This document shows positions 3,086 through 30,876 of a DNA stretch of 64,000 nt, piece by piece. The stretch's first letter is position 1. Each line of letters begins with the position of its first letter. The notes beneath the pieces are model-generated. The model was not told the DNA's origin and ran no database searches. It was given only the letters and a program-made list of their open reading frames with translations. The position numbers and the translations under genes were made by a program. Source of the DNA: Nemertoderma westbladi (lineage: Eukaryota; Animalia; Xenacoelomorpha); assembly GCA_032718475.1 (NCBI GenBank), contig JAUCBJ010007250.1, forward strand, positions 1-64,000, in the 5' to 3' direction.

Positions 3086-3363
3086 ATCTGAACAATCTGA
3101 GCAGGGTCACACGCCTTCTGCTCAATATTAGCCTACTAGAAAATAAAACCGACAGAAATAGGTAAAATCTCAATAAAAATTCAGGGCTGCAGTCCCTGAT
3201 TAAGTACTAAGACCTACCAGTATACAATAATCAAATCGAATAATACTAAATGTACTTGTACAGCAGTACCGGTACCGGTTATGACAGTTAGGCCTACTGA
3301 CCTACAGAAGTACCGGTTCTTTGCAACCCTATTGCCTACTGCAATAAGATTATAAACTGTTAC

Positions 3364-5218: not shown

Positions 5219-5223
5219 CATAT

Positions 5224-7385: not shown

Positions 7386-7511
7386 TATAGAATTATATTC
7401 CCTAAATGCCGTGGATTTTCAAAATTTTATTTTATTCGAATTAACTTTGTAAAGATTGCTTTGAGTTCTCATTAGTATTGGTTCTATCTATTATGCATCT
7501 ATCGGTCAAGT

Positions 7512-7598
7512 GGTTCAGTAGCTCAGTCGGTAGAGCGTTGGAAATTATATGTGTAGTAGGTATCGAGTTCGAATCCTAATAAGTGCGAATTATTTTTT
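7512..7598 (+). promoter_or_regulatory. tRNA-derived Pol III module in LTR A (second copy 24539-24625)
   Basis: A-box/D-arm TAGCTCAGTCGGTAGAGC (7519-7536), B-box GAGTTCGAATCC (7565-7576) and T6 run (7593-7598). Anticodon, T and acceptor stems do not pair. Confidence 0.7.
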
Positions 7599-7655
7599 GT
7601 GCAGAATTTCAACTCATTTAAATTAACCGCTACAAATTAATTGCATTTGTCTGTA

Positions 7656-7920
7656 CCAATGAGACCGTAGTTATTTGATTGTAACCAATGTCGTGCAAGT
7701 TATATATTAGCTGGACCAATAGCTATCTTTAAAACCTTGTTAGAATCTATAGAACAATCGAGAATTTTCTCGATTGATTGCGGCACAAATTTAGTATATA
7801 AAGGTGCGATTTCGTTCATTAGTATACTTACACAAACTAATTCAATCCATCATTCACTTTCTGTCTTATTTCAGATTACATTGTTTATTGTATAATAGTT
7901 ATTATATCTTTTGTAATAAA
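7656..7920 (+). promoter_or_regulatory. Candidate Pol II promoter and polyadenylation signal of LTR A
   Basis: CCAAT at 7656, 7685 and 7716 (about 30-nt spacing), inverted repeat CAATCGAGAATTTTCTCGATTG at 7755-7776, TATATAAA at 7795-7802, AATAAA at 7915-7920. Confidence 0.6.
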
Positions 7921-9306
7921 AGTCAGAAATACTAGTCACATCTCAGCCCTTTTCTATCTGTTTTACTATGGTTTCACTACGGTGAACAAACTCAGGGACA
8001 GGATGGCCGGCTAGAGATCGGGCCGCAGCAATGAACGGGAACATCACGGGAATGTAGACGAGAGACAACCCGCAATACCATCTTAGAGTTATTCGCCCAT
8101 CGCCTGAAAGGTTAGACAGCGTTCGATCCTTGCTACCTAAGTGTAAGACCAAAAGATCAAAGGTAGACGTAGTGACGCGCTGTAAGCCCAAAATTACATC
8201 ATAAGGACTGTACTGTCTTGATTCAGGAAAACCCACAGTAGACCTTCACATTCCTACGGGGGGAGGGAGAGAGAGCAGATACTAGTATGCAGATAGGACG
8301 TAGGCACACCGGTACAAGGCATACACATTGGTTAGGGTGCAGCAAACTGTACGCTTAACTCTTGCTAAGTACAGGTGTGTGTGCGACTATTTGCCGTACA
8401 ACAGTGTCCATTACATCAGAACTTGTAGGCTAGGGGGTTGCTGTGTTTTCACCTGAATTGGGATTGTACCGTTCAGGCGGTAGGGCAGTTTACGCTAGGC
8501 GCAAATAAATTGAGGCTATCAGGGATATACTAACATCTACCGTGTCCCCGCCAACGCCCTAATAGGAAGTTACCCGGACTACCTGGGTGACTAAAATTCT
8601 AGATAGGAGCCAGGATAGCTATTAGTACCCGTACGCCTACAGTAGTAAACTAACACATCTCTTCTTTGTATCAGGGACCTGGTACCTAAAATTGCCGAAT
8701 TCTGGGCGTAGTATTAACCTTATGCCTGAATTTGAGTCCTGGAAATACGCAAGAGGGGAAGGAACCTTATCATTCGTGAGTATTGGACCTACAAGTTATA
8801 AAATTAGAATATTCGTAAAATGCACACCGTACCCAGTAATTATATATGTGAAGGAGCAAAACTGTTTTTTGACCGTTCAGAATTAACACACGCGCGTTAG
8901 AAATTATTTACACCTCGAAATATATAAAATTAACTTAGTCCGTACTGTGCTTTGCCCGCTAGTTAGACATCTCCAAATCTGCTCTATACCTAGCTAGCGT
9001 CCCTTTGCCCAACCATATAAATCACACCGCGGCAAAGTATACGAGCCTCTTAGTCCGTCAGTGAGTCAGCCTGATTTTAGGATTCGCTGCGCGGGATTTT
9101 GTTTTATCGAAGTTTGTCTGCTCGTAGACTGTTTTCTGCCTCACCGGTTATAAGAGATCGATACTGCAATATATTCGCTTACTTTGGGTTTACTGTTTTG
9201 GTGAGAAGGTCGGATTTATGATTTGATTTACAAACTTTACAGTAGGATATTGCAGGTATTGTTACCGTCTCTTCCGATAGTAGGAATAGGCGTATCTCTT
9301 CAATTA

Positions 9307-9317
9307 GTAGGAATGTG
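9307..9317 (+). promoter_or_regulatory. Non-tRNA primer-binding position of A, complementary to LTR 8247-8257
   Basis: GTAGGAATGTG directly follows the LTR. Its reverse complement CACATTCCTAC lies at 8247-8257 and 25274-25284. No TGG. Confidence 0.75.
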
Positions 9318-10114
9318 TTTTACTGAACTACGGTTCGGTAGGACTAAAGTTATTTGAAAATTTTGTATTTTGAGGTAAAAATTTGTATTTGATTAGCTAA
9401 GTGCTAATTTTTTGAAATAAAATTTGATTTGAACCGCGTGTGAAGTATTTTGGAATTGAATACCGGTGTTTAAAAGGGTTTAAATACCATATTGTACCGG
9501 TACAAAATTTTCGTAAAGTAAAACCTAACTCTTTTGTTTTTTCAGGATTCAGAACTCATTTCTAGGCTGTAACGGGAGCAAGACCGTGTTTAGCAAGTTT
9601 GGGAGATAGATAACTCAACAACTTTGGTTGGGAAAATCGCGTTTCGTCCGCAACGTTAAAAACGGAAAGGTTCACGTTCGGTTTGTATCTGGGAATCTGT
9701 TTTTCTGGAGAATTATTGGAGTGGGTGAGTTCGAAAAGTTGCATAAATAAGTTAGGCATTACCGTATTAGTTAAAATTATTGTGGGTTCCACTGTCTCAA
9801 GTATTTATGCATTCCATATGATTTCTTTGTTCATTGCTGAATTAGTCCGTATTATTGTATTTAATTTACCCTTCGATAACGCATATCGTTATCCGATTTA
9901 TTTGTTATAAAATTGGCCGCTAGGCTAATTTTATTATATACTTATTCCGTGACATTTATTTGCTGTAAAATTGGCCGTTTAGGCTAATTTTATCCATCTG
10001 CTATAAGATCGGCCGGTAGGCTAATTTTATAAGACTGTAATTAGTACCGTTTAGATAAAAATACAGTAAACTCGATACTTTGACACTCACTTCACTTGAC
10101 TTACAACTACTGAA

Positions 10115-13100
10115 ATGAGTGACAAACAAGACTATACGAAGAATACACAAACCGACTATGACTCATGTGACGCGGATAAGTCAGCAGCGGAAGAACCACA
10201 GGGGAAGACTCGCGAGCCTACCGAACCTACACCGTGTGCGTCACCAGTACATCCAACGGGAGTACCGGATGCCGTAGTACGAGGCGACGGCAGGACCGAG
10301 GACTTTCTAACTGTTCCGCAACCTAGATATAGGGAAACGGAAATGGTAAGTTCAGCAGGAAGCACAGAAAGTGTGGTTAGAAGCGTCGGTGGTTACATGG
10401 CGCATATTACCAGGAGTATTGGAGAAGGCCAACGCATATTAGACGGGTTGACCGCTCCGATGTCTCGATTCGAGTTCTACACCCTCCAGGTTAGAGTACA
10501 GAGTAAAGTATATAAGTCCGTAGATAATCTAGTTGGCCTACAAGATCTAGCTAGACAGAGACAGGACATGGATACTCAACTTAGAATCCTCGAGAAACTA
10601 ATGATCACTAGAGAGAAACTGATTCAGTTTAAGTCGACGATTAGACAGATACAACAGGAACAAGCGGACCAGTTGCTAGGTGAGTCAGTTTCGGACGAAT
10701 TATTACAGCCCGAGGAAGAACAGGAACTGTACCGACTGGATGGACAATTGAAACACCTGACGGATCACTTGCGCATGTGCGGCGAAGACGTCGGGGATTG
10801 GGAAACCGTGCCGGAGGCTACGAGGGAAACTTCACTCGCACAAATCGAACTGGCACCGGGAACACTAAATCAATCACTGGTGAGTATTCGTAGCGAAATC
10901 TGCGAAGGAAGTATGGTCACGTCAGAAGTCGCTCGACAACAGCAAGAATTCTGCCGACAACGACAAGAAATGGAAGAACAAGCTCAACTTCTAGTGATGC
11001 AAGCAGCAGTAGAGGAAGAGAAGCTACGCGTTGCGAATATAGTAAGAATATCTCATCTACAGGAACAAGCTGAATTAGAAGCAGCTGAAGTAGAAAGGTT
11101 AGAGTTAGACATTGCCCGACAAGCGGCAGCGGCAGCGGCCGAGTTAGAGCGACAAAACGCGGCGGCCGAGTTAGAGCGACAAAACGCAGCGGCCGAACTG
11201 GAGCGACAAACGGCAGCGGCAGCGGCGGAATTAAAACGAGAAAGGTTAGTCTCAGAAGCACGGGCCGAAATGAGAACACGGCAAATAAAAGCTCAATCTG
11301 CTATACGACAAGCAGAATTTGAGGCGCAACAACGACAAACGGAACAACGAGAGAAGACAGCTAAACTTCATTTCGAACTTGAGAAGAAGGCGAGAGAATT
11401 AGCGAACGCTGAGGAAGATCTGGATCAAAGGGCCCGCGATCGATCGATGAGATCTCGTGACGGACATGATTTGGACCAGTTAGAGGTAAGACATCGCCAA
11501 ATTCAGGAACGGAAGAAGGAAGGAAGCGTAGGAGCACCCGGACGGGAACGACAATTAGTAAAGGACGTGTGTCAACGATTCCCACAGGTAACTCATATGT
11601 TTGCACCGGTTACGACTAAGGAACCTGTTTCGATTGCGGGTAGTAGTAACATTTCTCCTATCCATGGTGCGACGGAACACAGGTTTGTTATTCCGGACGA
11701 GTTTACACCGCCAAGAGCAACGTCGTCGCCTATTCCGAAAGTCAAGGTAAGTAACCCACCGATTACGGATCGTAGTAGTTTATTGACCGGACCTGCACTA
11801 CTGACGACAAAACAGGTGAGTCCACCGTCGACACCTAAACCCGTTACACACTACGCTTACCCAATGACGTTTCGACCAACAAGGCCTTTGGATTCAAATG
11901 CTGTCACTCGACCACCGGTTCAGTTTACATCGCAATCTACGACTTCGAGGAAGACTTGTGAGCCTACCGAACAACGGAGAACAGTGGATACGCGACCGGT
12001 TCAGTTTACATCGCAATCTACGACTTCGAGGAAGACTTGTGAGCCTACCGAACAACGGAGAACAGTGGATACGCGACCGGTTCAGTTTACATCGCAATCT
12101 ACGACTTCGAGGAAGACTTGTGAGCCTACCGAACAACGGAGAACAGTGGATACGCGACCGGTTCAGTTTACATCGCAATCTACGACTTCGAGGAAGACTT
12201 GTGAGCCTACCGAACAACGGAGAACAGTGGATACGCGACCGGTTCAGTTTACATCGCAATCTACGACTTCGAGGAAGACTTGTGAGCCTACCGAACAACG
12301 GAGAACAGTGGATACGCGACCGGTTCAGTTTACATCGCAATCTACGACTTCGAGGAAGACTTGTGAGCCTACCGAACAACGGAGAACAGTGGATACGCGA
12401 CCGGTTCAGTTTACATCGCAATCTACGACTTCGAGGAAGACTTGTGAGCCTACCGAACAACGAAAGCGAGACGATGTTCCGAAACGAACCGTTAGAATTA
12501 GTACGACGCAACGGACGCGAGCACGTCGACCACCATATCCAGATGATAGTAGTACTTCGAGCGAATCGGATTACCCGAAACGCGAGGTATTTAGAACAGG
12601 GGCGGCCGATGAATACAAACGCGAGCGTTCAGACAACTCCTTTGCAGACAATCCTCCACAGAATACACCAACACAGAAGGCGTTACAACCAACGGACGCA
12701 ATTAGTACACAACAGTTCGCCGACATCCTGCGACCAGTTGTCAATAAGTTGGCTCAAATCGAGGAACGTCTGGAGGAAGGTTACACCGACAGTTCGAGAA
12801 ACTCCGAATTCGAACCCAATAAACACCCGAAGGAACCACAAAGACCGGTACCTTCAAACCCCACATCGTATCAAAGAAAAACGCCAAGAAGGGAGAACAA
12901 CAACCCGGTTGCCAACCAAGGACGCGAAACTTTGAACGTTGCCGAGGAGATAGCGAAATTCGCAGCCAGACAGGGATTGCCGGTACAACAACCACCGAAG
13001 TTTTCCGGTAGCTCAAAACACTGGCATACCTTCGTAGACTATATCGAATCCCAGATCGCCGTGTGCGCCTTTACATCACGGGAGAAGTTCAATTACCTGC

Positions 13101-16100
13101 TCCAAATGTTGTCAGGAGAACCTAAACGTTTGGCGGAGACCTTCGTTGGTGTACCGGACGCTTTCGAACTAGCGTACGATCGTTTGACTTCGATATACGG
13201 AGGTACAGTGAGTATGGCCAGGTCAGTAATAGAGGAACTCTGTAAGGGAGGGGCTATCACTAAACCCGTCGACTTACTAAAACTGGCTGACGAGATTAAG
13301 AACGCTATCACTACCTTAAGATCAATTGGACAACTTGATTACGGGAATACCCCTACAGTTCTATTAAAGATAATAGGACGACTCCACCATCGACTTCGTC
13401 GGGAGTGGAGGAAGGTCGAATACCAGCGAGAGGAGCGAGGAGGATTCCTAAAATTAGAAGATGTGTACCTTTTAATATCCAGGGAGGCGGTAGTTGAAAC
13501 TCGATCTAACTATACCGACCAGCACATCGTGGCAGAAGGGATCACACTGCCATCCTCCAACCGACAAAAACCCCAGACAACATCCACAAAGACGGCCACT
13601 TACGCCACACCGACGGAATCACGACAATTCTCAGACGGTAATAGAGTATCTGCGCCCATTGGAACGAAACAGACGAGACAGCAACTCAGCGCCGACTTCA
13701 ACGGCTGCCAATACTGCGAACATTTAGGTAAGCGGTATATTGGTCACAAGTTACGAGGTTGTCGACAATTTCGCGAGTTGAACTCAGAAGAACGACGGCT
13801 GCAGATACGGCCACTGGACTCTTGTTGGCGGTGTACGCGACACGGACACGTCCGTAAGGATTGCCCAAATACCGACACTTGTCCATCCTGTGGACGCAAC
13901 CACGACGGTCTGCTCCACACAGACAGCCACACGCCGACGAAACGCTTCGCCAGGGAACACCCGGAAGCAGCAGCGAGATGTGATGCGGCCTACCGAAAAC
14001 GAGAATCGAAAACGACTCCAACATTCGTGACCCATATAGAGGATTGCTTTTCAGAACAATCCGGATCGTCGGACGAAGAATCAGACGACGACGAATATTC
14101 TAATGGAGACGAACAACCGTCAATCGCGCTCCTGACCACTGACCAACTGAAGGGATTCAGTGTAATCCCGATTAAAGTTACTGGCACAAAGGGGAGCAAA
14201 AGAATCTACGCGATTCTAGACTCAGCCTCATCTCACAGTTACGTGGATGAAAAGATAGCTGACGTCGTAACGGATCTCAGACAAGGTAAACACGTCAGTT
14301 ATACAGTAAGTAGTATGCACGGCCAGCGTGCAATACCAGTGACACGAGTTAAGTTGGACTTAGACTCTCTTCTTCCAAAATCGCAACACAGCGAGAGGGA
14401 GAGGTCTTTGTTGCCCTTTAGAGATCTAACCTTTGCGGCCACGAAGGACTTTAGTAACCTACTAGGTCCAGTGCCGGAACAATCTCTGGAGGACCGTAAG
14501 TATTTCAGACACCTTGGTGTACCCGAATGTCCTGTCAATTATAGATCGGTAGCAATGCTGATCGGGACGGACCAATTCAACCTACATCAGGTGTGGGAAA
14601 CCAGACCATCGGCAGTTGTAGCGGGAAACGCATACGCCTGCAGAACGCCGATAGGGTGGTATACTCGAGCGCCTGTGCGCACACTAGACGTAAGTGACGA
14701 GGAAGACGACGTACAGAGTACATGTAGTTTATTGACTACAAACTCAATTCATTCCTTTTCACACGACGTGAACCATACTACGCTACAGTCGACAAAACAT
14801 GACAGACGTGTAACTAGTATGATAAGTCACAAGGAGCAGCTAACCCACAAGGTGAGTTTAGAACTTGGGGAGAAGACGAATCAGCTAGAGATTCCATCGA
14901 CGACAGATGATAGGCTTGCGAGTCTACCTACCCCAACAACCTCAACAGTGCCCGTCGATATCGACGATGACGCGTTGAAAATTCATCAGTTGGAACAAGC
15001 CGCCTTGGACAAAGAATTAACGGAGAAGACTATCAGGTGGTTAGAACAAGATACAGCTGAACCTGGTAGCTACGAACCTTGTATGTCGGAACAGGAGAAA
15101 CAATCTCTGAAGATCATGGAGGATACTATCCGACAGACGGAGGACGGACATTACGAGGTGGGTATGTTATGGCGTAGCCAAAGTCCTAAACTTATAAACA
15201 ACTACCCACTGGCTTTAAGACGTCTACACTCAATACGGCAACGTCTATTAAAGGACGAGAAAGCCCATCTGCAGTACAACACTCAGATGGAGACGTATTT
15301 GACGAAGGGATACGCTATCCGAATGACTAACCCGGAGCAAGTGACCGACCAGACATACTACCTGCCACATCACTATGTGAGACATCCCGACAAACCAGAC
15401 AAAGTACGCGTAGTCAATGACTGTGCGGCTCTGTTTGAGGGAATGTCCCTCAATAGTGAGTTGATGGATGGACCGAACATGAATAATTATCTTATGGGGG
15501 TGATTATGCGCTTCCGTCAGCGTCAAGTAGCCTTTACTTGCGACGTTGAAGCGATGTTTCACCAAGTGAAAGCGTTAGAGCGAGACAGAGACAGTTTGCG
15601 GTTTCTCTGGTATCCGGAAGGGGACTTAAGTCTACCACCAGCGACTTACCAAATGCAAGTTCGCGTTTTCGGTGCCAGAGACAGCCCAAATTGTACGATG
15701 TACGCCTTGAAGCAAGCCGCTAGAGATCAGAAACATTTGTATGACCCAGAGATAATTAGAATTGTAGAACGTGACTTTTACGTTGATGACGGTTTACAAA
15801 GTTGCGACACAGTAGAACGTGCTACAACAGTAGCACATCAATTACGGGACTGCTTGGCGGGCGGAGGTTTTAACCTCACCAAATTCGCCTCAAACAGTGC
15901 CGAATTAGTTGACTCATTCGGAACTACTGAGCGTGGAGGTGGTGACATAGACCTAGAGTTCGAACCACTACCGACGACTAAGGTGTTGGGGCTCTTTTGG
16001 GACCCAAACACAGACAACTTTCGAGTGAAGGTGAGACTGGACAGTCAAGGAAACACACTGACCAAGAGATCATGCTTGTCAAAGTTGAGCCGATTGTTCG

Positions 16101-19100
16101 ACCCGTTAGGATTCATCAGTCCAGTGATACTGCAAGCCCGCATTTATATGCGCAGTATATGGAAGGATGGACTAACGTGGGACGAGCCGATCTCATCAGA
16201 CCAAGTGGACTTATGGAAGACCTGGGAGGCGGAATTGTCTTCGCTAGAGGATTATTTCATACCCAGGGTTTACTTTCCATTACAGAGTACATTTCCTGAC
16301 AACTTAGAACTACACTGTTTTTCTGACGCCAGTGACAACGGTTTTGGTGTGGCAGCGTATTTGCGCAGACAAGTAGAATCAGACGAGTTCGATGTTTCGC
16401 TCATTACTTCCAAGGCTAAGACCATGCCTACTAAGTATATGACGACACCACGAGCCGAGCTACAAGCCGCGACCCTGTCAACCACCATCGTGAACCTCAT
16501 ACAGACAGAACTACAGTCGAGTTTACAGATATTTTATTGGACTGACGCGACGTTGGTTTTATTTTACATAAACAACGACACACTCGAATTCAAGACATTC
16601 GTAGCTAACCGTCGCGCAGAGATTCTAGACCGTTCGATAAAAGAGGATTGGCGACATTGTCCCGGACCACAAAACCCAGCTGATATTGCGTCGCGAGGAA
16701 TGATGCCTGAGGAATTCTGTAAACCGGAGAACAAAGAGTTTTGGCAACACGGACCCCAGTTCTTGCAGAAATCGACACAAGATTGGCCTCCGCTATACGA
16801 CAACAAGTCCAACACCATTCCTAAGGACGCCGAAATCAAGAAACCAAAAAAGGGGAAGACAAAGAAAAGGACAACGGCGGCGAAACTAAAGAAAAAACCG
16901 AAGGCGAAATGGAAGGATATAACTTCAAAGGTCAAGAGAGGAAGACTTGCGAGCCTTTCTACACCAGACATATCGCCAGACGGTCGACCAGACATATCGC
17001 CAGACGGTCAACCAGACACTTTACTAGACAGTCAACCAGACATTTTGCCAGACATATCACAAAATGTTCCACCAGACGCTAGTAACACACTGACAAACAG
17101 TAAAGCCGCAGTTTCTCTATTGGAGCGGCCTTCTATTGACAAACAACTAGATACGTTACCAGACGTATCGCCAGACACATTACTAGACAGTCGACTAGAC
17201 ACTAGTAATGTATTGACTAACGATAAAGCCGCAGTTTCCCTATTGGAGCGGCCTTGTATTGACAAACTACCAATTTTGACACACTTGAGCAACCATAAGC
17301 ACGGTGAAACCTCATGTATTACAGATGTGGGTAGTACCTACGCTAATGTAAATACAGGTGTTACTCTGCGCTCAAGAGACATACCGAACTTGCAACCTAT
17401 AGTGAGACCTGGGATTAATGTCGGCAGGAAAATAAGTTTACCGAAACCTGCTGACCCCATAGAGTTCAAACCACCATTAACGATCGACTTACAAAGTACC
17501 GACAATCAAGGTAAGAAGACGAAGAAGGACAAATTACTTGTAGACCCGGACGGATCAACAGTCAACAAGGGAATACTTACCGGCGGACCCGTGGGCCCTT
17601 CTAGTAATTCAAAACCTTCCAAAATCTCCATTGACTTACCTGATGACGTCACAAATACTTACGTCGACCGAATTGTAAACTTAACAGACTCTTGGTCGAA
17701 CGCTTGCCGAAAATTAGCGTGGATTGTACGTTTCGTACAATACGTTAAAGGCAAACGTGACTTTACACGTCGACTTACATTGGCTGAGATTGACAGGTGT
17801 GAGATTAAATTAATTCGCCATTACCAACTGCGATATTTCGCGCGCGAATTCACATCCATAAATCAAGGTCAACCAATCAAGTCGTCACCGATACTGAGTT
17901 GGAGTCCGATTATTTATAATGGCTTAATTTGTCATAAATCTCGGCTTCAAAACATTGACTTTAACACAAACTTTAGGTACCCAATAATAATACCGCAACA
18001 CCACGAACTACAACGTGCAATGATACTGGACGCACATTTACATCTGAAACACGCTGGAAGACACCACTGTCTTTCCTACTTACGTACTAGATTTGTATTA
18101 ATTAGACCCAGTAAAGCATTGAGTTCAGTGACACGTACGTGTATTATTTGTAAAAAGGTACATTCTAGAATAGGTACCCAAGAAATGAGTGAACTATCAC
18201 AAGCACGACTTCAAGCATTCAGACCACCTTTTACAGAGACTGGAATTGATTGCTTTGGTCCCATACATACGAAACGTGGACGTATACTAGTAAAACGCTG
18301 GGGACTGATTTTCACATGTATGTCCAGTAGGGCAGTTCACATTGAACGTGTGATGGATCTTTCCACCAACGCGTTTATACTAGCACTGCGGCGATTTATC
18401 GCTAGACGCGGACTAGTAAAATGCTTGTACTCAGACCAAGGGACAAACTTTGTTGGTGCTCGGAATGAGATTGCTAGAGCCTTTAAGAGATTAGATCATG
18501 ATCAAATCTCGAACGAACTGCAACCTCACAAGATTGTTTGGAAGTTTAATCCTCCAGATAGTCCTTGGAGAGGCGGAGTCTGGGAGAGATTGATTAGATC
18601 TATCAAAACGGCCATGGCAAAGGTCATTCCAGTAAACCACATATTAACAGACGACCAACTGACAACATTGTTTGTTGAAATCGAGGCAATACTAAATACT
18701 AGACCAATAGTATTAGTACCCGATGACAAACAATCTCAGTTCGCTTTAACACCAGCACACCTGCTTATGCAGGCACCGACCACATTGACGCCGATTTCCA
18801 TTCCAATGGAAAGTGATAGTTACGGTAGAAAAGCGTGGAAAATCACGCAACTACTGGCTAACAAATTCTGGGAAATATGGCAAAACCATTATTTGCCCTC
18901 TATTTCTGCCAGAACAACATGGTACAATAACACCCGCGCATTAAAGCCGGGAGATCACGTGCTGTTGGCAGAAGTGAATCTAAAAAGACGCTTCTGGATA
19001 ACAGGTGTCATTTTAGCCACACATCCATCTATGGATGGAGTGACAAGAACTGTGACGGTACGAACAATTGACGGTCGTACAGTAGACAGACCAACTCAAC

Positions 19101-19171
19101 GTCTCGTACTTCTTGAAGAGACTCGTAACGAGTCTGGAGACTACAAATCTCCACCTAATACTAGTAAATAA
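10115..19171 (+). CDS. gag-pol: BEL/Pao Gag-Pol polyprotein, 3018 aa (Gag, Zn knuckles, aspartic protease, RT, RNase H, integrase)
   Basis: Gag PPKFSG..W..F; CWRCTRHGHVRKDC and CPSCGRNH; protease ILDSAS; RT YLPHH, DVEAMFHQV, FYVDD; RNase H HCFSDAS, PRAEL, WTDA, NPADIASRG; integrase H..H..CIIC, GIDCFGP, SDQGTNF, WERLI; domain order PR-RT-RH-IN. Confidence 0.96.
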   Translation: MSDKQDYTKNTQTDYDSCDADKSAAEEPQGKTREPTEPTPCASPVHPTGVPDAVVRGDGRTEDFLTVPQPRYRETEMVSSAGSTESVVRSVGGYMAHITRSIGEGQRILDGLTAPMSRFEFYTLQVRVQSKVYKSVDNLVGLQDLARQRQDMDTQLRILEKLMITREKLIQFKSTIRQIQQEQADQLLGESVSDELLQPEEEQELYRLDGQLKHLTDHLRMCGEDVGDWETVPEATRETSLAQIELAPGTLNQSLVSIRSEICEGSMVTSEVARQQQEFCRQRQEMEEQAQLLVMQAAVEEEKLRVANIVRISHLQEQAELEAAEVERLELDIARQAAAAAAELERQNAAAELERQNAAAELERQTAAAAAELKRERLVSEARAEMRTRQIKAQSAIRQAEFEAQQRQTEQREKTAKLHFELEKKARELANAEEDLDQRARDRSMRSRDGHDLDQLEVRHRQIQERKKEGSVGAPGRERQLVKDVCQRFPQVTHMFAPVTTKEPVSIAGSSNISPIHGATEHRFVIPDEFTPPRATSSPIPKVKVSNPPITDRSSLLTGPALLTTKQVSPPSTPKPVTHYAYPMTFRPTRPLDSNAVTRPPVQFTSQSTTSRKTCEPTEQRRTVDTRPVQFTSQSTTSRKTCEPTEQRRTVDTRPVQFTSQSTTSRKTCEPTEQRRTVDTRPVQFTSQSTTSRKTCEPTEQRRTVDTRPVQFTSQSTTSRKTCEPTEQRRTVDTRPVQFTSQSTTSRKTCEPTEQRRTVDTRPVQFTSQSTTSRKTCEPTEQRKRDDVPKRTVRISTTQRTRARRPPYPDDSSTSSESDYPKREVFRTGAADEYKRERSDNSFADNPPQNTPTQKALQPTDAISTQQFADILRPVVNKLAQIEERLEEGYTDSSRNSEFEPNKHPKEPQRPVPSNPTSYQRKTPRRENNNPVANQGRETLNVAEEIAKFAARQGLPVQQPPKFSGSSKHWHTFVDYIESQIAVCAFTSREKFNYLLQMLSGEPKRLAETFVGVPDAFELAYDRLTSIYGGTVSMARSVIEELCKGGAITKPVDLLKLADEIKNAITTLRSIGQLDYGNTPTVLLKIIGRLHHRLRREWRKVEYQREERGGFLKLEDVYLLISREAVVETRSNYTDQHIVAEGITLPSSNRQKPQTTSTKTATYATPTESRQFSDGNRVSAPIGTKQTRQQLSADFNGCQYCEHLGKRYIGHKLRGCRQFRELNSEERRLQIRPLDSCWRCTRHGHVRKDCPNTDTCPSCGRNHDGLLHTDSHTPTKRFAREHPEAAARCDAAYRKRESKTTPTFVTHIEDCFSEQSGSSDEESDDDEYSNGDEQPSIALLTTDQLKGFSVIPIKVTGTKGSKRIYAILDSASSHSYVDEKIADVVTDLRQGKHVSYTVSSMHGQRAIPVTRVKLDLDSLLPKSQHSERERSLLPFRDLTFAATKDFSNLLGPVPEQSLEDRKYFRHLGVPECPVNYRSVAMLIGTDQFNLHQVWETRPSAVVAGNAYACRTPIGWYTRAPVRTLDVSDEEDDVQSTCSLLTTNSIHSFSHDVNHTTLQSTKHDRRVTSMISHKEQLTHKVSLELGEKTNQLEIPSTTDDRLASLPTPTTSTVPVDIDDDALKIHQLEQAALDKELTEKTIRWLEQDTAEPGSYEPCMSEQEKQSLKIMEDTIRQTEDGHYEVGMLWRSQSPKLINNYPLALRRLHSIRQRLLKDEKAHLQYNTQMETYLTKGYAIRMTNPEQVTDQTYYLPHHYVRHPDKPDKVRVVNDCAALFEGMSLNSELMDGPNMNNYLMGVIMRFRQRQVAFTCDVEAMFHQVKALERDRDSLRFLWYPEGDLSLPPATYQMQVRVFGARDSPNCTMYALKQAARDQKHLYDPEIIRIVERDFYVDDGLQSCDTVERATTVAHQLRDCLAGGGFNLTKFASNSAELVDSFGTTERGGGDIDLEFEPLPTTKVLGLFWDPNTDNFRVKVRLDSQGNTLTKRSCLSKLSRLFDPLGFISPVILQARIYMRSIWKDGLTWDEPISSDQVDLWKTWEAELSSLEDYFIPRVYFPLQSTFPDNLELHCFSDASDNGFGVAAYLRRQVESDEFDVSLITSKAKTMPTKYMTTPRAELQAATLSTTIVNLIQTELQSSLQIFYWTDATLVLFYINNDTLEFKTFVANRRAEILDRSIKEDWRHCPGPQNPADIASRGMMPEEFCKPENKEFWQHGPQFLQKSTQDWPPLYDNKSNTIPKDAEIKKPKKGKTKKRTTAAKLKKKPKAKWKDITSKVKRGRLASLSTPDISPDGRPDISPDGQPDTLLDSQPDILPDISQNVPPDASNTLTNSKAAVSLLERPSIDKQLDTLPDVSPDTLLDSRLDTSNVLTNDKAAVSLLERPCIDKLPILTHLSNHKHGETSCITDVGSTYANVNTGVTLRSRDIPNLQPIVRPGINVGRKISLPKPADPIEFKPPLTIDLQSTDNQGKKTKKDKLLVDPDGSTVNKGILTGGPVGPSSNSKPSKISIDLPDDVTNTYVDRIVNLTDSWSNACRKLAWIVRFVQYVKGKRDFTRRLTLAEIDRCEIKLIRHYQLRYFAREFTSINQGQPIKSSPILSWSPIIYNGLICHKSRLQNIDFNTNFRYPIIIPQHHELQRAMILDAHLHLKHAGRHHCLSYLRTRFVLIRPSKALSSVTRTCIICKKVHSRIGTQEMSELSQARLQAFRPPFTETGIDCFGPIHTKRGRILVKRWGLIFTCMSSRAVHIERVMDLSTNAFILALRRFIARRGLVKCLYSDQGTNFVGARNEIARAFKRLDHDQISNELQPHKIVWKFNPPDSPWRGGVWERLIRSIKTAMAKVIPVNHILTDDQLTTLFVEIEAILNTRPIVLVPDDKQSQFALTPAHLLMQAPTTLTPISIPMESDSYGRKAWKITQLLANKFWEIWQNHYLPSISARTTWYNNTRALKPGDHVLLAEVNLKRRFWITGVILATHPSMDGVTRTVTVRTIDGRTVDRPTQRLVLLEETRNESGDYKSPPNTSK
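11915..12462 (+). repeat. Perfect 81-bp tandem repeat (6 full + 1 partial copy) in gag of A
   Basis: Encodes PVQFTSQSTTSRKTCEPTEQRRTVDTR repeats. Units appear identical. Confidence 0.95.
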
Positions 19172-19724: not shown

Positions 19725-22700
19725 TTGTCGAAGCCCAAAGGGCAGACGAAACTCTCACGTCTCCTCACAACTAACTACAAACTCTGTTGTATTCCCTCTA
19801 GTAGTAATGATTATGTAACTACACCTCTAATTATGGAGAAAGGGACACAAGGAGAGCCAAGATGGGGATATGATATCCAAGAGGAGGCAGCAGCGCCATT
19901 CGAAAGATTTGGAGCCAAGGATTACACTATATTTGGTATAAAAGAATTATCGGAAAGTACAGCGAAACTCGCGAGAACTAAATATGACTCGAATGTATTA
20001 AAGAGAAGGCAAAACGCATTAAACGAAAGAATCGAAAGTTTGCGCCAAACCTTCAACGAACTTTACCCGTACGATGCTTTGTGTGACACGGGAGACATTA
20101 GCGAAGACCCCGATACTGAAATTAGTCGTTTGTATCATACCATGCAATACCTAAAGGCGCATGAACCTATGCCTGCGGTACGCGATGAATTCGATGGAAT
20201 GCATCTTTACAGACGAACTCGAGGGGACGATAGAGAAACCAAGGAAGCATTTTCAGTTTATAAACTTTATTATCAATGCGGTTCTTGTATGCGCGAACAA
20301 CGAAATGCGATTCCGATGCGTTTGAATAAGGAAAATCCCGAACCGATATTGGCGAGGTGTTCGAATCATCAACAACTACGCTACCAGGAAGGAGGGTATC
20401 CTTTATCGAATCCATATCATTCATTTGCTATGACCGGACCAAAGGCGGGAGAAACTGTCATTTACCCACCTAAGGTTGTTGAACCCGATGTATTTGAACT
20501 TACGCTGGACGAGGCGAATCAGTCAACCCGCGAAAAGAAAGAAGCTCTTAGCCTATACAGAGCCTACAAGGCTTTCGAGAAAGGTGAGATGGAAGAATGG
20601 GGTGGAAGACTCGCGAGCCTACCTTGCCATTGGACGTCACACGATCAAACTTCAGCTAAGGAGATGACACCGGAAGTTTTCGAGAGCATAAACTTTGCTC
20701 AAAACGTTATTCAGAGATTACAGATTGCATCCCCGGAGAGGCCAAGAGAAATGCAACCGTATAGTACTTCAACTACGAAACCATTGAGTACGACACTCAA
20801 TTTCCCTATTAGTATACCAGTCCGACAGGATACGACGTACGAAATACCCATCGTGGATCATCCAGAAATCATTTCAAACTTGGAGTTTCTTCCTGCAGTT
20901 GTTTTCAGCGATATGAGTAAGATATATGATTTGCGTAGACATATTACTCAAAAGGTCGTGAACAACGTTCCACCTCATATTCAAGATTTTAAGGAACTGG
21001 ATAGAGCTGGTGCCGACATAGCTCCGAGTAATCTGAAAGGATATCTAACCAAGACGATTCGTTTATGGATTGGAATCGGAACCTTCGAGTCGGATACGGA
21101 TATTGCCGCAGATTGGCGAGGTAAGGTTATTCGTTTCGATGAGGATAAGGATATAGAGAAGATTTGGCAACCTTCGGAAGAATTGTTGGATGAATGGACT
21201 AGGACGTTTAGATCGTTTCAGGAAAACGGTTATATGTTTTACGATAACGAGGGCGGCAGTCATCAGCAGAGTTTGACTTCTAAGACTATACAGATTAGAG
21301 CGGCGGACGGAGTCCTGCACGTTTTCAGTAGACAGAGGAGCGACAAACGAATGCCGATACCTCCAGCGAATACAAAGCGACACCATCTTATCACCGATAT
21401 AGTAAAGAAGATGGACCAAGCTTGTAATATTGACGCTAGAATGCTACCGAAGATGGTAAGAAACATGATTTTAGATAAAACTGTTGTAAAGGTTGGATCA
21501 GGAGTAAGGGAGGATTTAATTAGCGACTTCGTTGGCATGACGGACAGCGATGACCGACTACCGACACCATACGTCGACACTCGACCTCTTATTCTGTGGT
21601 CTATAGAACAGGGATATTTTCGTGAGTATAATACTCAGAAGACTGGAACTGGATACATTTCCTACCTGTTATTCAATTGGGATTATAAGGAAGGTAAAAG
21701 AAACAAGTATATTGAAACTTATGGAGAAGGTGATACTCCAGATATGAGTGAGTTTGAATCACAGCTTAAATGGAGAGGATGCGTGTATTGGGCTATTACG
21801 TCACCTCCAAGAGCGGTCTTACAATATTATTTAGCGATAGAGTCGTCAGTGAATGTTTGCCTAATCGCCGACATCGTGTCTCGGACTCTCAAAAGACATC
21901 CACTTTGTCTCGGAGAAGATCATACGTTCTACATGGAAGGGAGAATTCGTACCGACGTGTTTAGACGATTCCTTGAACCCTTCTACAACTCCGACGCTCA
22001 GTGCAATGCCTTTACTCGAGCAGGATTTAGTATATTTCGAGACGTGTATCTTCGCTGTGCGGGATCTCTTATCGAAAGACCATCTATGTTTACACTGTTA
22101 CCCTATGAAGGAGAACGTATCGTGGAGATTACGGATGAATCACGGCAGACGCGCGCGCCTATCGGTCACCTTGGTGATGAATTCGAAGTAACTACTACGA
22201 TCGCCGACGATCCTTTAGAGGAACTTCTTGAGATAGAAAGGAACCTCCCGAAGAAATCTCAGACGGAGATTCGACAACTTGAAGCAACAGATGCTATAGT
22301 TTGCCTACAACCTTCAGAAACCTACCAACCCATAGACCCAGATGATTACGATTATAGTATGGGAGGAAGCGCTCGACCGATTGGAGATCTTATATACGAA
22401 CGAGTGTGGTACCCTGCTAATACGATGTGTAGTAAATGTGGCGTCGCTGGACATCATATGGCAAAGTGCAGTGGAAAGCACATTACTACGACTCAGCTAA
22501 TCTGTGGATGGTGTGGGGATCAAGGGTCTCATACCTTTTATACTTGCTGGAGATTTATGGCTCAATGTACTTACTGCAATATAAAGGGACATCGAGCATC
22601 TGAATGCCAACTGAGAGACATACCTTATGAACATGAATCTGTAAAACTCGTGAGGAAGTTATTTGATGAGTGGGAAGATTTGGCCGACGAACATGTATCG

Positions 22701-23558
22701 GCACAGAGAAGACGGTTTCCGATGAGAGCGCATCTCGGATTTTGGGCGGTAAATCCCCAGACGATGATGTCGGAAGGATACATCTCCGCTATGCCCCAAT
22801 ATGACGAACTTATCGAGGTTGTTGATATTTTGCCCCACGACAGCGGATTCCGAGTGGTGCGTGAGTATCTGTTACAGATTCACCCAGATAACAAAAACAC
22901 GTGGAATTTTCAGAAAGTCGTAAATCGTATCACGTATGGTGAATTTGATCGTTTCCGAACCGAAAAGCGGAATAAAGGAGCTTGGTTAACCGTCGCATGG
23001 GCGTACCGAGCCGCGTTTTACCATAAACGTATACGAGCGAGCGTATTCGAGGAAGAAGAGGTCCTAGAGGCGACGAATATATCAGCCACTCCGGTTGCGC
23101 CGTCTGCACGTCACCCTCGGGAGGACGGGCAGGGTAGGATCATACGGGTCCAGAAAGTGGGCCAACAATTGAAGAAAATTATTAATGTGGAAGAACGCAA
23201 GGGAGTTGAGCCGACTATTCGAGTTACTCGGGATACGGTATCACTTCCAAGAGAACCGGTAGGAGGATCGGGACATACACCAGCTGATCAACAGGGGGCG
23301 CAAGCTACTCTTGGGTCTGCGTCGTCCACTCCTCGCGCGTTCCCAGACGTTCTACCAACTGTAGCGACAACTGATCGGTCACGAGGAATTGGTCGAGGTT
23401 TTGGGATGCCAAATAGACGAATTTGCGAGGAAATAGTCGCACCGTCTCTCAACGTCCCAAGTAAACCAGTGACTCGCCCCAATAGTCCCATATCGCGAGC
23501 AAAGTCACCTGTGCGCAGTTTTCGAGGACGCGGCAGGGCTCGATCTACTAAGCGATAA
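19725..23558 (+). CDS. ORF2 of element A: DnaQ/DEDDy-like 3'-5' exonuclease domain plus three zinc knuckles (first ATG at 19833)
   Basis: ExoI FYDNEG (D 21243, E 21249) followed by TIQI; ExoII LPKMVRNMILDKTVVKVGSGVRED (D 21513); YVDT; ExoIII-like YLAIE (21828-21842). CCHC-type knuckles at 22428-22607. No signal peptide or TM segment, so not env. Confidence 0.8.
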   Translation: MSKPKGQTKLSRLLTTNYKLCCIPSSSNDYVTTPLIMEKGTQGEPRWGYDIQEEAAAPFERFGAKDYTIFGIKELSESTAKLARTKYDSNVLKRRQNALNERIESLRQTFNELYPYDALCDTGDISEDPDTEISRLYHTMQYLKAHEPMPAVRDEFDGMHLYRRTRGDDRETKEAFSVYKLYYQCGSCMREQRNAIPMRLNKENPEPILARCSNHQQLRYQEGGYPLSNPYHSFAMTGPKAGETVIYPPKVVEPDVFELTLDEANQSTREKKEALSLYRAYKAFEKGEMEEWGGRLASLPCHWTSHDQTSAKEMTPEVFESINFAQNVIQRLQIASPERPREMQPYSTSTTKPLSTTLNFPISIPVRQDTTYEIPIVDHPEIISNLEFLPAVVFSDMSKIYDLRRHITQKVVNNVPPHIQDFKELDRAGADIAPSNLKGYLTKTIRLWIGIGTFESDTDIAADWRGKVIRFDEDKDIEKIWQPSEELLDEWTRTFRSFQENGYMFYDNEGGSHQQSLTSKTIQIRAADGVLHVFSRQRSDKRMPIPPANTKRHHLITDIVKKMDQACNIDARMLPKMVRNMILDKTVVKVGSGVREDLISDFVGMTDSDDRLPTPYVDTRPLILWSIEQGYFREYNTQKTGTGYISYLLFNWDYKEGKRNKYIETYGEGDTPDMSEFESQLKWRGCVYWAITSPPRAVLQYYLAIESSVNVCLIADIVSRTLKRHPLCLGEDHTFYMEGRIRTDVFRRFLEPFYNSDAQCNAFTRAGFSIFRDVYLRCAGSLIERPSMFTLLPYEGERIVEITDESRQTRAPIGHLGDEFEVTTTIADDPLEELLEIERNLPKKSQTEIRQLEATDAIVCLQPSETYQPIDPDDYDYSMGGSARPIGDLIYERVWYPANTMCSKCGVAGHHMAKCSGKHITTTQLICGWCGDQGSHTFYTCWRFMAQCTYCNIKGHRASECQLRDIPYEHESVKLVRKLFDEWEDLADEHVSAQRRRFPMRAHLGFWAVNPQTMMSEGYISAMPQYDELIEVVDILPHDSGFRVVREYLLQIHPDNKNTWNFQKVVNRITYGEFDRFRTEKRNKGAWLTVAWAYRAAFYHKRIRASVFEEEEVLEATNISATPVAPSARHPREDGQGRIIRVQKVGQQLKKIINVEERKGVEPTIRVTRDTVSLPREPVGGSGHTPADQQGAQATLGSASSTPRAFPDVLPTVATTDRSRGIGRGFGMPNRRICEEIVAPSLNVPSKPVTRPNSPISRAKSPVRSFRGRGRARSTKR

Positions 23559-23599
23559 AAGGGAGGGCAAGGGTGGACGGAAGACTCGTGGGCCTTTCT

Positions 23600-24400
23600 T
23601 ATGATTTGTGATTTATTTTGAATTATATGTTTTATATTTAGAAAACTTATGCAATTTGTATTGTTCCGAATTTATGAAATTTAGAAAGTTTATATTTAGA
23701 AGGAACTTATATTTGAAAGATTTATGTTTCATATTTGAGATGCAAAAGGTTTATATTATTTTAAACTTATGCAGTTTATATTTATATTTAAGTAAAGACT
23801 TATATTTAGTAAGATTTATATTTAGTAAGAATTTATATTTTATATTTACGTGATTATTTCGAACTTATGCAATTTATATCATTCCGAACTTATGCAATTT
23901 ATATTGTTCCGGATATTATGCAATTTATAAGCAGTATTTGTATTTACAGTGAAATAGAAAGTTTTATAGATAGAAAATTTTGTGCTCAGAAAGACTCATA
24001 TTTGTAATTATTCCAAACTTATGCAATCTACATTTAGGTACGAAAGTATTTGTAATTACTTGAATTTATGCAATATTTGAGATGCAATAGTAGATGGAAG
24101 ACTCGCGAGCCTTTCTTATTGTTTTCATTTATTTGTATTTGTAATTGTTTGAATTTATGCAATATCTGAGATGCAATAGATTTATATTGGTGAATTTAAT
24201 TTAGATTTATATTGTACTTACTTAGTAAAGCCTTAACTACGTAAAGTTTGAATTTGTAATTATTTTTGTATCGAATCATTACGTAAAAAGGAAGTATTGT
24301 TTGAAATTTAATTGTAAATATGTAAGTACGCCCTAAGTATTCTATAGTTTGATTGATTATTGGTGAAAACCGTATATTTTATGCACGATAATATCCTGTT
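23600..24400 (+). repeat. AT-rich 3' UTR of A with degenerate short repeats
   Basis: Recurrent ACTTATGCAATTT(A/G)TAT and GAATTTATGCAATAT units. Confidence 0.6.
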
Positions 24401-24412
24401 TTCATGGAGCGG

Positions 24413-26333
24413 TATAGAATTATATTCCCTAAATGCCGTGGATTTTCAAAATTTTATTTTATTCGAATTAACTTTGTAAAGATTGCTTTGAGTTCTCATT
24501 AGTATTGGTTCTATCTATTATGCATCTATCGGTCAAGTGGTTCAGTAGCTCAGTCGGTAGAGCGTTGGAAATTATATGTGTAGTAGGTATCGAGTTCGAA
24601 TCCTAATAAGTGCGAATTATTTTTTGTGCAGAATTTCAACTCATTTAAATTAACCGCTACAAATTAATTGCATTTGTCTGTACCAATGAGACCGTAGTTA
24701 TTTGATTGTAACCAATGTCGTGCAAGTTATATATTAGCTGGACCAATAGCTATCTTTAAAACCTTGTTAGAATCTATAGAACAATCGAGAATTTTCTCGA
24801 TTGATTGCGGCACAAATTTAGTATATAAAGGTGCGATTTCGTTCATTAGTATACTTACACAAACTAATTCAATCCATCATTCACTTTCTGTCTTATTTCA
24901 GATTACATTGTTTATTGTATAATAGTTATTATATCTTTTGTAATAAAAGTCAGAAATACTAGTCACATCTCAGCCCTTTTCTATCTGTTTTACTATGGTT
25001 TCACTACGGTGAACAAACTCAGGGACAGGATGGCCGGCTAGAGATCGGGCCGCAGCAATGAACGGGAACATCACGGGAATGTAGACGAGAGACAACCCGC
25101 AATACCATCTTAGAGTTATTCGCCCATCGCCTGAAAGGTTAGACAGCGTTCGATCCTTGCTACCTAAGTGTAAGACCAAAAGATCAAAGGTAGACGTAGT
25201 GACGCGCTGTAAGCCCAAAATTACATCATAAGGACTGTACTGTCTTGATTCAGGAAAACCCACAGTAGACCTTCACATTCCTACGGGGGGAGGGAGAGAG
25301 AGCAGATACTAGTACGCAGATAGGACGTAGGCACACCGGTACAAGGCATACACATTGGTTAGGGTGCAGCAAACTGTACGCTTAACTCTTGCTAAGTACA
25401 GGTGTGTGTGCGACTATTTGCCGTACAACAGTGTCCATTACATCAGAACTTGTAGGCTAGGGGGTTGCTGTGTTTTCACCTGAATTGGGATTGTACCGTT
25501 CAGGCGGTAGGGCAGTTTACGCTAGGCGCAAATAAATTGAGGCTATCAGGGATATACTAACATCTACCGTGTCCCCGCCAACGCCCTAATAGGAAGTTAC
25601 CCGGACTACCTGGGTGACTAAAATTCTAGATAGGAGCCAGGATAGCTATTAGTACCCGTACGCCTACAGTAGTAAACTAACACATCTCTTCTTAGTATCA
25701 GGGACCTGGTACCTAAAATTGCCGAATTCTGGGCGTAGTATTAACCTTATGCCTGAATTTGAGTCCTGGAAATACGCAAGAGGGGAAGGAACCTTATCAT
25801 TCGTGAGTATTGGACCTACAAGTTATAAAATTAGAATATTCGTAAAATGCACACCGTACCCAGTAATTATATATGTGAAGGAGCAAAACTGTTTTTTGAC
25901 CGTTCAGAATTAACACACGCGCGTTAGAAATTATTTACACCTCGAAATATATAAAATTAACTTAGTCCGTACTGTGCTTTGCCCGCTAGTTAGACATCTC
26001 CAAATCTGCTCTATACCTAGCTAGCGTCCCTTTGCCCAACCATATAAATCACACCGCGGCAAAGTATACGAGCCTCTTAGTCCGTCAGTGAGTCAGCCTG
26101 ATTTTAGGATTCGCTGCGCGGGATTTTGTTTTATCGAAGTTTGTCTGCTCGTAGACTGTTTTCTGCCTCACCGGTTATAAGAGATCGATACTGCAATATA
26201 TTCGCTTACTTAGGGTTTACTGTTTTGGTGAGAAGGTCGGATTTATGATTTGATTTACAAACTTTACAGTAGGATATTGCAGGTATTGTTACCGTCTCTT
26301 CCGATAGTAGGAATAGGCGTATCTCTTCAATTA
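24413..26333 (+). repeat. 3' LTR of element A
   Basis: Direct repeat of 7386-9306. Confidence 0.96.
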
Positions 26334-30812: not shown

Positions 30813-30876
30813 CAAAAAAAAACCGTTCGTTTAAAAAATATAAAATAATGTAGTCACATACCCACTCCAGACGCTG

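Follow-up and report, generated by a model that had tools for sequence, protein, structure and literature searches.

Reverse transcription primed by the element's own RNA has been described for LTR retrotransposons belonging to the Tf1/sushi group and predicted for some plant lineages. In Tf1 and Tf2 of Schizosaccharomyces pombe, and in the Tf1/sushi group, the primer-binding site (PBS) pairs not with a tRNA but, over about 11 nt, with RNA that stems from the element's own LTR (PMC7175516; PMC4600332; bioRxiv 10.1101/2022.12.06.519325). For plant Ty1/copia elements of the TAR lineage and for Tcn1, self-priming has been predicted from an LTR match of at least 10 bp located 0–5 bp after the LTR (PMC6317226). 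A second relevant precedent comes from the bdelloid Juno and Vesta elements (Ty3/gypsy) and from Athena/Terminon, which carry behind pol an additional ORF, ORF3, with an RNase D-like DEDDy domain, an altered acidic motif and a putative function; the main text of that article draws no link between the DEDDy ORF3 and the PBS or self-priming (PMC5408684). BEL/Pao elements, for which a literature search returned no description of self-priming or of a DEDDy-type ORF, are given in one account as 4.2–10 kb long with LTRs of 0.2–1.2 kb (PMC3118150).

The stretch of Nemertoderma westbladi DNA analysed here (the window; 64,000 nt) contains three BEL/Pao elements, A, B and C, and a Gypsy element. The three resemble Tf1/sushi in having a PBS complementary to their own LTR, and TAR and Tcn1 in that self-priming is predicted from the same type of sequence evidence, whereas the extra ORF that follows pol in A (ORF2), with its DEDDy-like domain and altered acidic motif, recalls Juno and Vesta. 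Tf1/sushi elements are Ty3/gypsy chromoviruses and A, B and C are BEL/Pao; TAR and Tcn1 belong to other superfamilies and hosts, and the account that we draw on mentions no extra exonuclease ORF in them (PMC6317226). ORF2 of A, compared with Juno/Vesta ORF3, resides in a BEL/Pao element, is 1241 aa long, is fused to zinc knuckles and is changed at ExoIII rather than in the 'DEED' manner.

BEL/Pao elements of the window and their primer-binding sites

Element A lies on the forward strand between a 5' LTR at 7386..9306 (1921 nt) and a 3' LTR at 24413..26333, which differ by three mismatches, have TA..TA instead of TG..CA termini and are flanked by a 5-bp target-site duplication (TSD; 7381–7385 and 26334–26338). 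Its open gag-pol (10100..19171, 3023 codons) contains an RNase H region with acidic motifs that we take to be those of the enzyme, and is followed by ORF2 (19833..23558, counted from the first Met) and a polypurine tract (24405..24412). The Pao-specific domains DUF1759, Peptidase_A17, integrase zinc-binding and DUF5641 (PF03564, PF05380, PF17921 and PF18701), which with the 5-bp TSD give A its likeness to BEL/Pao (Belpaoviridae), recur in pieces in B, and the RT-RNase H matches listed (34%–43% identity) all carry PF05380 (120 of 120). Judged by a gag-PR-RT-RH-IN make-up with Pao domains, by RT-RNase H and LTRs with 5-bp TSDs, A and B can be assigned to the BEL/Pao LTR retrotransposons, although A departs from the usual members in its total length (18.9 kb), 1.9-kb LTRs, non-tRNA PBS, TA..TA termini and an extra ORF that is not env-like. 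A 17-nt motif, a candidate ligand of ORF2, occurs in 13 copies along A.

Element B, on the reverse strand, has its 5' LTR at 41229..42058, with an internal deletion of about 270 nt in U3, and its 3' LTR at 5224..6327, and is flanked by a 5-bp TSD. The insertion of A interrupts its ORF2, leaving a 5' piece at 26334..28100, open from 27149 to the insertion, and a 3' piece with zinc knuckles at 6406..7385; the N-terminal half (about 27150–28100) contains stops and frame changes. Element C, also on the reverse strand, is seen without its 3' half, which falls outside the window; its 5' LTR (3364..4604) is about 70% identical to that of B across R-U5.

In each of the three elements the PBS is exactly complementary to a segment of the element's own LTR. 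The PBS of A (9307..9317) pairs with the 11 nt at 8247..8257, as the earlier note had proposed, and the segment recurs in the 3' LTR at 25274–25284; the PBS of B (41218..41228) pairs with 11 nt at 41964..41974 (3' LTR copy at 5959–5969), and that of C (3351..3363) with 13 nt at 4115..4127. The three PBSs differ in sequence, are non-TGG and are flush with the LTR end, and each finds its best match in its own LTR, cross-matches extending over 4–9 nt. Such matches are expected by chance 4e-4, 1.3e-3 and 1.1e-4 times per LTR in A, B and C, respectively, and the empirical background in the window is about 0.5% for 11 nt and about 0.3% for 13 nt. The Gypsy element, which as a control belongs to a different superfamily, has TGG 3 nt past the LTR, a PBS that we take to be of the tRNA-Trp type, and a self-match of only 5 nt. 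A spliced extension of the PBS match was sought in all three elements: there was none in A and none longer in B, and one of 2 nt in C was treated as chance. A tRNA-like stretch in the U3 of A was rejected as a primer source, having given no ARAGORN or Rfam match and not containing the segment. These complementarities make it likely that A, B and C use their own RNA as the primer of reverse transcription. The suggestion that A and B share both the self-complementary PBS and the exonuclease ORF holds for the pairing in both; the ORF2 of B, however, is split and, in its N-terminal half, broken.

Self-complementarity in relatives without ORF2

Among 80 metagenome BEL/Pao loci, none of which yielded an ORF2 match, 11 have LTRs delimited at both ends and too little space for ORF2. 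Eight of these carry a self-complementary PBS, two a TGG-type PBS and one is ambiguous. In the eight, merely 482–863 nt separate the end of the integrase from the end of the 3' LTR, and stop-free stretches between the integrase and the LTR end reach at most 138 codons in the ORF2-less relatives. Shuffled LTRs attained the observed scores in 0–2 of 100 trials and decoy PBS positions in 0–1 of 50. The segment spans a splice junction in six of the eight loci; such frequent assembly across an LTR intron distinguishes these BEL/Pao relatives from Tf1. A, B and C are set apart from the relatives by contiguous segments and a very long R-U5; one ORF2-less locus, L039, also has a contiguous segment. 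Counting A, B and C with the eight loci, 11 elements with different PBSs have an own-LTR match that starts 0–4 nt from the LTR end, and the primer would end in AC or AT in 10 of them (A, B, C and seven of the eight), with and without ORF2 alike, which points to shared enzymology.

These relatives remove the main support for a link between exonuclease and primer. It had been proposed that ORF2 makes the primer and that the two traits should co-occur across BEL/Pao families; the reverse case, which the proposal itself had named as a refutation, was found, with a self-complementary PBS but no ORF2 in eight of the 11 assessable loci, and because these relatives show the same pairing, ORF2 is probably not the source of the primer. 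It is conceivable in principle that elements lacking ORF2 are supplied with it in trans. Nor do A and B provide two cases of the association: in a BEL/Pao tree without outgroup they are sister lineages (support 0.999), so that the exonuclease ORF and the self-complementary PBS co-occur as a single event. Self-complementary loci are scattered across several clades, A and B falling in one, and ORF2 was, we infer, acquired later, in the A/B lineage. Self-priming that is clade-wide among these BEL/Pao elements is the best reading, and the sequences suggest that, in this animal superfamily, priming without a tRNA is common, with a primer that is internal and sometimes splice-assembled.

Five further loci with a cut 3' LTR were scanned and left out of the counts: L001, L005 and L015 (the last of the same family as L014) gave 11-nt spliced matches, a length reached by 1, 3 and 0 of 10 shuffles, respectively, and L011 and L012 gave nothing credible. 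A regex survey of TGG PBSs across 58 loci was too noisy for counting, and no BEL/Pao loci were found in viral contigs.

ORF2, a remote DEDDy-like protein

ORF2 of A appears to combine a remote DEDDy-like (RNase D-type) domain with zinc knuckles (about 22420–22620), as judged from one homologue (P0122) and weak profile matches. The D-x-E of ExoI (D471/E473; 21243–21251) falls in register with the ExoI motifs of RNase D, Pol I and P0122, and a weak epsilon-subunit match (E 0.034) crosses the same stretch, although a BLAST pair alignment places ExoI differently. ExoII is matched to RNase D and Pol I by hhalign (probability 68.7, E 4.6e-5, 45 columns) with D561 (21513–21515) aligned. At ExoIII, A, B and P0122 have YxxxE (21828–21842 in A) in place of the canonical YxxxD, and the MAFFT placement, 14 residues upstream, contains no acid whatsoever. 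The earlier description of ORF2 as an exonuclease is in part upheld by the ExoI and ExoII acids and the ExoII profile, and weakened by the non-canonical ExoIII and by the lack of any Pfam match at E ≤ 0.01.

Other searches added little. For a DnaQ/RNase H-like fold, AlphaFold models were of low confidence (pLDDT 30 and 33), and Foldseek with one of them returned no match at E ≤ 0.001; sequence searches of the PDB with ORF2 or its alignments gave nothing relevant, and P0122 retrieved zinc-knuckle proteins and one unrelated chain only. Word-indexed searches for homologues had 0 matches among 2179 and 301 candidates, P0121 was discarded as a false match driven by repeats, and no genomic context for P0122 was found in viral contigs, prokaryote contigs or plasmids. 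ORF2 is most likely an accessory RNA-binding or RNA-trimming/nuclease protein, with a putative role in packaging, export or anti-silencing.

Transcription signals and formation of the primer 3' end

How the primer 3' end is formed in BEL/Pao elements is a real and testable question. We favour, at a probability of about 0.5, a mechanism in which A, B and C self-prime with their own LTR RNA and the primer 3' end is produced by the element's RNase H and not by ORF2 trimming. Transcription would begin upstream of the segment, at a distance of up to about 420 nt in A and of about 100 nt in B and C as well as in several relatives. The 5' R copy of the segment would pair with the PBS, and RNase H would cleave just 3' of the segment, as in Tf1, leaving a capped 5' fragment as the primer. 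Strong-stop DNA would then extend back to the cut and jump to the 3' R, a step that requires polyadenylation to take place downstream of the segment, which in A means AATAAA 8504 or a later site.

Start and poly(A) sites were placed by sequence motifs. In A, three CCAAT boxes and TATATAAA form a candidate promoter (7656..7802); TATATAAA, at 7795, lies 452 nt upstream of the segment, in agreement with the roughly 450 nt noted before. TATATAA occurs 124–135 nt upstream of the segment in three of the eight ORF2-less self-complementary relatives. The upstream TATATAA and the splice-spanning segments of relatives agree with the earlier view that the segment of A probably does not form the opening 11 nt of the RNA; in A, B and C it is probably internal, unlike the 5'-terminal 11 nt of Tf1. 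An AATAAA or ATTAAA follows the segment by 14–94 nt in five of the eight relatives and precedes it, outside the intron, in none, which is the layout needed by cut-and-jump. Element A has one AATAAA upstream of the segment (7915..7920) and another 247 nt downstream (8504..8509); the former, followed by a U-rich tract, looks the better signal. Were it in use, cleavage within one molecule would leave that molecule without R homology and call for a second copy of the RNA. Low-depth contigs from one sequencing run included none that bridges 8078–8404 or the PBS, and no joints.

A host 3'–5' pathway (deadenylase, exosome or similar) that shortens the genomic 3' R, or a short LTR transcript, as far as the PBS duplex would require no element exonuclease, would operate without ORF2 and would suit the short terminal-exon-like unit of relatives, in which acceptor, segment and poly(A) signal follow one another in five of eight. 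We consider it unlikely: the duplexes (−8.0 to −17.1 kcal/mol) are weak for a precise stall, 735–1049 nt separate the segment from the LTR end in A, B and C, in B and C long folds, unreliable at such length, predict that the bases following the segment on its 3' side are paired, and a fixed AC/AT end would be unexpected of a sequence-blind stall. Very doubtful is trimming by ORF2 itself, even if restricted to the A/B/C lineage. The ExoI and ExoII acids, the invariant YxxxE (three of three members) and the contiguous segments and long R-U5 of A, B and C speak for it, but the self-complementary PBS is present in eight of 11 ORF2-less loci, the acquisition was a single event, the primer end is identical with and without ORF2, ExoIII is not YxxxD in either alignment and L039 is contiguous without ORF2. 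A related and equally speculative idea is that a large BEL/Pao branch primes with internal, often splice-built RNA of its own and that in A, B and C, with their intron-less segment and kilobase R-U5, a DEDDy-zinc-knuckle protein acquired by capture attaches to the RNA and finishes the primer end by trimming or polishing, acting as an element-encoded primer maturase.

The strict Tf1 mechanism, with transcription starting at the segment and an RNase H cut after base 11–13, strikes us as rather improbable. It would agree with segment lengths of 11–13 nt, an Inr-like match at position 863 of the A LTR, a B/C LTR similarity that starts shortly 3' of the segment, TATATAA at −31 in L008 and the high primer:PBS pairing in A and C when folds start at the segment. 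Against this, A, B and C have no TATA at −30 of the segment, in B and C it is preceded by CCAAT at 160–177 nt and by an Inr-like site at about 100 nt, and in the spliced relatives the first exon would measure only 4–9 nt if transcription began at the segment. That the pairing is structural only, the primer being some other RNA of the host, for instance a tRNA half, is highly improbable, since 11 elements with different PBSs each match their own LTR and no single host RNA fits them all.

The three-duplex 'pretzel' of Tf1 was not recovered by folding: one side duplex is possible in A and none was found in B or C, and the folds shift with the chosen 5' end. In long folds with the 5' end moved upstream, primer:PBS pairing fell from 0.92 to 0.0 in A and to 0.0 in C. 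Pairing of the post-segment sequence with the U5 end ranked 38th of 1846 25-nt windows in A, 590th of 1029 in B and 1088th of 1166 in C. The purine run that had been noted directly 3' of the segment of A is present (8258..8275), and the folds differ as to whether it pairs with the U5 end.

Self-complementary PBSs in nested BEL/Pao elements

The window carries BEL/Pao elements in a nested arrangement. Element A (7386–26333, forward strand) has 1921-nt LTRs with 3 differing positions, a gag-pol frame open over 3023 codons and, after it, an extra frame, ORF2, which is also open (1241 aa counted from the first Met). It is inserted inside ORF2 of element B (reverse strand; LTRs 42058–41229 and 6327–5224; 5-bp TSD), and one public contig contains related sequence without the A insertion. 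Element C (reverse strand), a relative of B, is present with its 5′ LTR (4604–3364), its 3′ half lying beyond the window. Among the matches listed, the nearest named proteins are from cnidarians, molluscs, fish and other animals (34%–43% identity). The termini of A are TA..TA (7386–7387, 26332–26333) with a clean 5-bp TSD; TA ends also occur in the metagenome loci L034 and L039, but both begin with TG. The A polyprotein has a long repeat-rich in-frame insert between RNase H and integrase (16880–17600) and its gag a perfect in-frame 81-bp array (11833–12561), pol pieces of B are internally duplicated near its 3′ end (30025–31039, 32441–32925), and the insertion sites of both B and C lie within or next to a LINE-like endonuclease fragment (4581–5234).

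In all three elements, the sequence flush with the 5′ LTR end is exactly complementary to a segment of the same LTR, over 11 nt in A (PBS 9307–9317, segment 8247–8257), 11 nt in B (segment 41974–41964) and 13 nt in C (segment 4127–4115). The chance expectation per LTR is 4e-4, 1.3e-3 and 1.1e-4, respectively, and the empirical window background 0.3%–0.5%. The three PBSs all differ, none starts with TGG, inter-element PBS/LTR cross-matches span 4–9 nt, and B and C have different PBS/segment pairs despite ~70% identity over R–U5. Judging from these sequence features, we regard the pairing as a genuine self-priming signature. The Gypsy element of the window, described in an earlier note as having a normal tRNA-Trp PBS, indeed has a TGG-type PBS and a self-match of 5 nt; the tRNA-Trp label is putative. 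On visual inspection, each of the three PBSs is followed by a small hairpin (9320–9340 in A, ~41185–41210 in B and 3335–3350 in C), and U5 hairpins differing in their letters are common to B and C. An 8-nt second copy of the A PBS start lies in U5 at 9280–9287, 27 nt upstream and directly after an acceptor-like site, and could be a decoy or a switch.

Self-priming is already known as a kind, of which the BEL/Pao form would be a new variant. Outside subscription papers and Repbase notes, we found no description in the literature of BEL/Pao self-priming (on which PBS tables in supplements could bear), of splice-junction self-priming or of a DEDDy domain with BEL elements. Further sources, cited in part, are PMC6317226, PMC4600332, bioRxiv 10.1101/2022.12.06.519325, PMC3118150, PMC3601003, PMC554778 and PMC6338049.

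Relatives lacking ORF2

The earlier note linked ORF2, as an exonuclease, with a self-complementary PBS from the co-occurrence of the two traits in A and B. A scan of metagenome contigs yielded 539 confirmed BEL/Pao stretches; in the best 80 of these, many of them incomplete, neither A ORF2, nor either piece of B ORF2, nor P0122 (a protein matched by the ORF2 profile) had a match at E ≤ 0.01. Among 28 loci with direct repeats, the LTR end was defined in 12 and 11 were kept, L041 being left out because its repeat ends before the LTR end; several of the 11 are collapsed assemblies of different copies (the LTR parts of L019 are 88% identical). A self-complementary PBS of 10–15 nt, 0–4 nt off the LTR end, was present in eight of the 11 and a TGG-type PBS in two (L061, L079), with L049 assigned to neither class. 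Six of the eight matches (L034, L044, L014, L008, L016, L046) span an intron whose donor is GT and whose AG acceptor is pyrimidine-rich, and those of L039 and L019 are contiguous. Shuffled LTRs attained the observed match length in 0–2 of 100 cases and decoy PBS positions in 0–1 of 50. Of the L019 LTR copies (1–326, 6560–7103), the 5′ one keeps the intron acceptor and the other has joined exons; an intron-less LTR form therefore exists in this family. At its 3′ terminus the primer reads AC or AT in all three window elements and in seven of the eight relatives.

From integrase end to LTR end, all 11 loci span 215–863 nt with at most 138 stop-free codons, which leaves no room for ORF2. In an RT–RNase H tree with midpoint root and weak deep nodes (A, B, 65 of the 80 loci and 18 named proteins; 15 short-match loci, including L044, omitted), A and B are sisters (0.999), self-complementary loci fall in several clades, and L061 and L079 share one (0.989). 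Hence, the self-priming signature is wider than ORF2, the co-occurrence of the two traits in the window counts as one event, and the proposed linkage is not supported: PBS–LTR pairing is independent of ORF2 in the relatives. L022 and L023 lie on one contig, in which a 6138-nt BEL/Pao unit is present as three exact tandem copies, either an assembly artefact or a circle-derived array.

Segment position and primer formation

TATATAA lies 124–135 nt upstream of the segment in three of the eight self-complementary relatives, at −31 in one and far upstream in another, with no TATA-like site found in the remaining three; AATAAA or ATTAAA follows the segment by 14–94 nt in five and precedes it in none. 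B and C share a conserved CCAAT box 160–177 nt upstream of the segment and an Inr-like site ~60 nt past the box. This layout suggests that the segment is probably internal to the transcript, in agreement with the earlier proposal that it is unlikely to be the first 11 nt, as in Tf1, the self-priming element of Schizosaccharomyces pombe. The signals of A conflict: one AATAAA lies 342 nt upstream of the segment end, another 247 nt downstream. The segment-to-LTR-end distance is 735–1049 nt in A, B and C versus 88–216 nt in the relatives. Folding does not discriminate between positions of the segment in the transcript: Tf1 side duplexes were not recovered for B and C, and predicted primer:PBS pairing varies with the 5′ end chosen. 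A tRNA-like stretch in the A U3 (7510–7590), with a T run and motifs resembling the A-box and B-box consensus, received no call by ARAGORN or Rfam.

We favour, with a probability of about 0.52, a model in which the 5′ R segment would pair with the PBS, RNase H would cut at the segment 3′ end, the capped 5′ fragment would serve as primer, and transfer would go to a 3′ R reaching beyond the segment. Primer release by RNase H is established for Tf1 (PMC7175516, in part). Intron retention in progeny LTRs would also be accounted for if the cut lay downstream of the splice junction, although 3′-end models can explain it too. Host trimming of a short LTR RNA or of the 3′ LTR RNA, which would likewise make the primer end, is an unlikely competitor. 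A strict Tf1 scheme, with transcription starting at the segment, is still less probable in view of the motif layout. That ORF2 trims RNA to make the primer, as the earlier note held, draws on the co-occurrence in A and B, but the signature recurs in eight of 11 ORF2-less relatives and the co-occurrence is one event; the idea is thus unsupported, and even a lineage-specific role of ORF2 in making the primer seems improbable. We give very little credence to pairing with no priming role.

ORF2 and other features of the window

Pfam returned no match at E ≤ 0.01 for whole ORF2 and zinc knuckles in one part of it. A profile of A and B ORF2 had two matches among 1.84 billion proteins, P0121, rejected as spurious, and P0122, which has the ORF2 domain (pair E 4e-11) and zinc knuckles in common. 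P0122 resembles DNA_pol_A_exo1 weakly (E 0.059–0.2) and RNase D with z 5.9, a score reached by 0 of 300 shuffles; A ORF2 alone gave no signal against RNase D (z 0.4 and 1.0). Over ExoII, the three-member profile matched RNase D and Pol I (probability 68.7, E 4.6e-5), and its ExoI and ExoII acids align with theirs; ExoIII reads YxxxE in all three members, the acid being absent in the MAFFT placement. Two AlphaFold models gave no usable fold (pLDDT 30 and 33). ORF2 is probably a non-canonical member of the DEDDy fold and would best fit an accessory protein that binds or trims RNA. Of the claim that A and B both combine an exonuclease with a self-complementary PBS, the PBS part stands; the exonuclease identity is remote, ExoIII is non-canonical, and B ORF2 is split by A, with stops and frame changes over ~27150–28100. 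Bdelloid Ty3/gypsy and Athena elements similarly carry a DEDDy-type extra ORF, ORF3, of putative activity (PMC5408684, in part, where the PBS goes unmentioned).

Element A carries 13 sense-strand copies of a 17-nt motif, none with more than 2 mismatches, spread over two reading frames and non-coding DNA (10203; seven copies in the 81-bp tandem array at 11949–12435; 16940; 19456; 20604; 23579; 24096), and one copy with 2 mismatches on the opposite strand (14928). A longer form has five matches versus none in 100 shuffles; the 17-nt pattern is absent from the 80 metagenome loci, and B yielded no analogue. At the RNA level the motif is a candidate signal for packaging or export, and ORF2 or Gag may be the protein that binds it.

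Elsewhere in the window, a 15-bp unit forms arrays in both orientations, ~1 kb apart (48067–49187), which resemble a foldback or MITE-type element. The Gypsy element (53716–58933), which is young, its 282-nt LTRs having 2 mismatches, truncates the 3′ end of a forward-strand LINE with endonuclease and RT (49536–53743).
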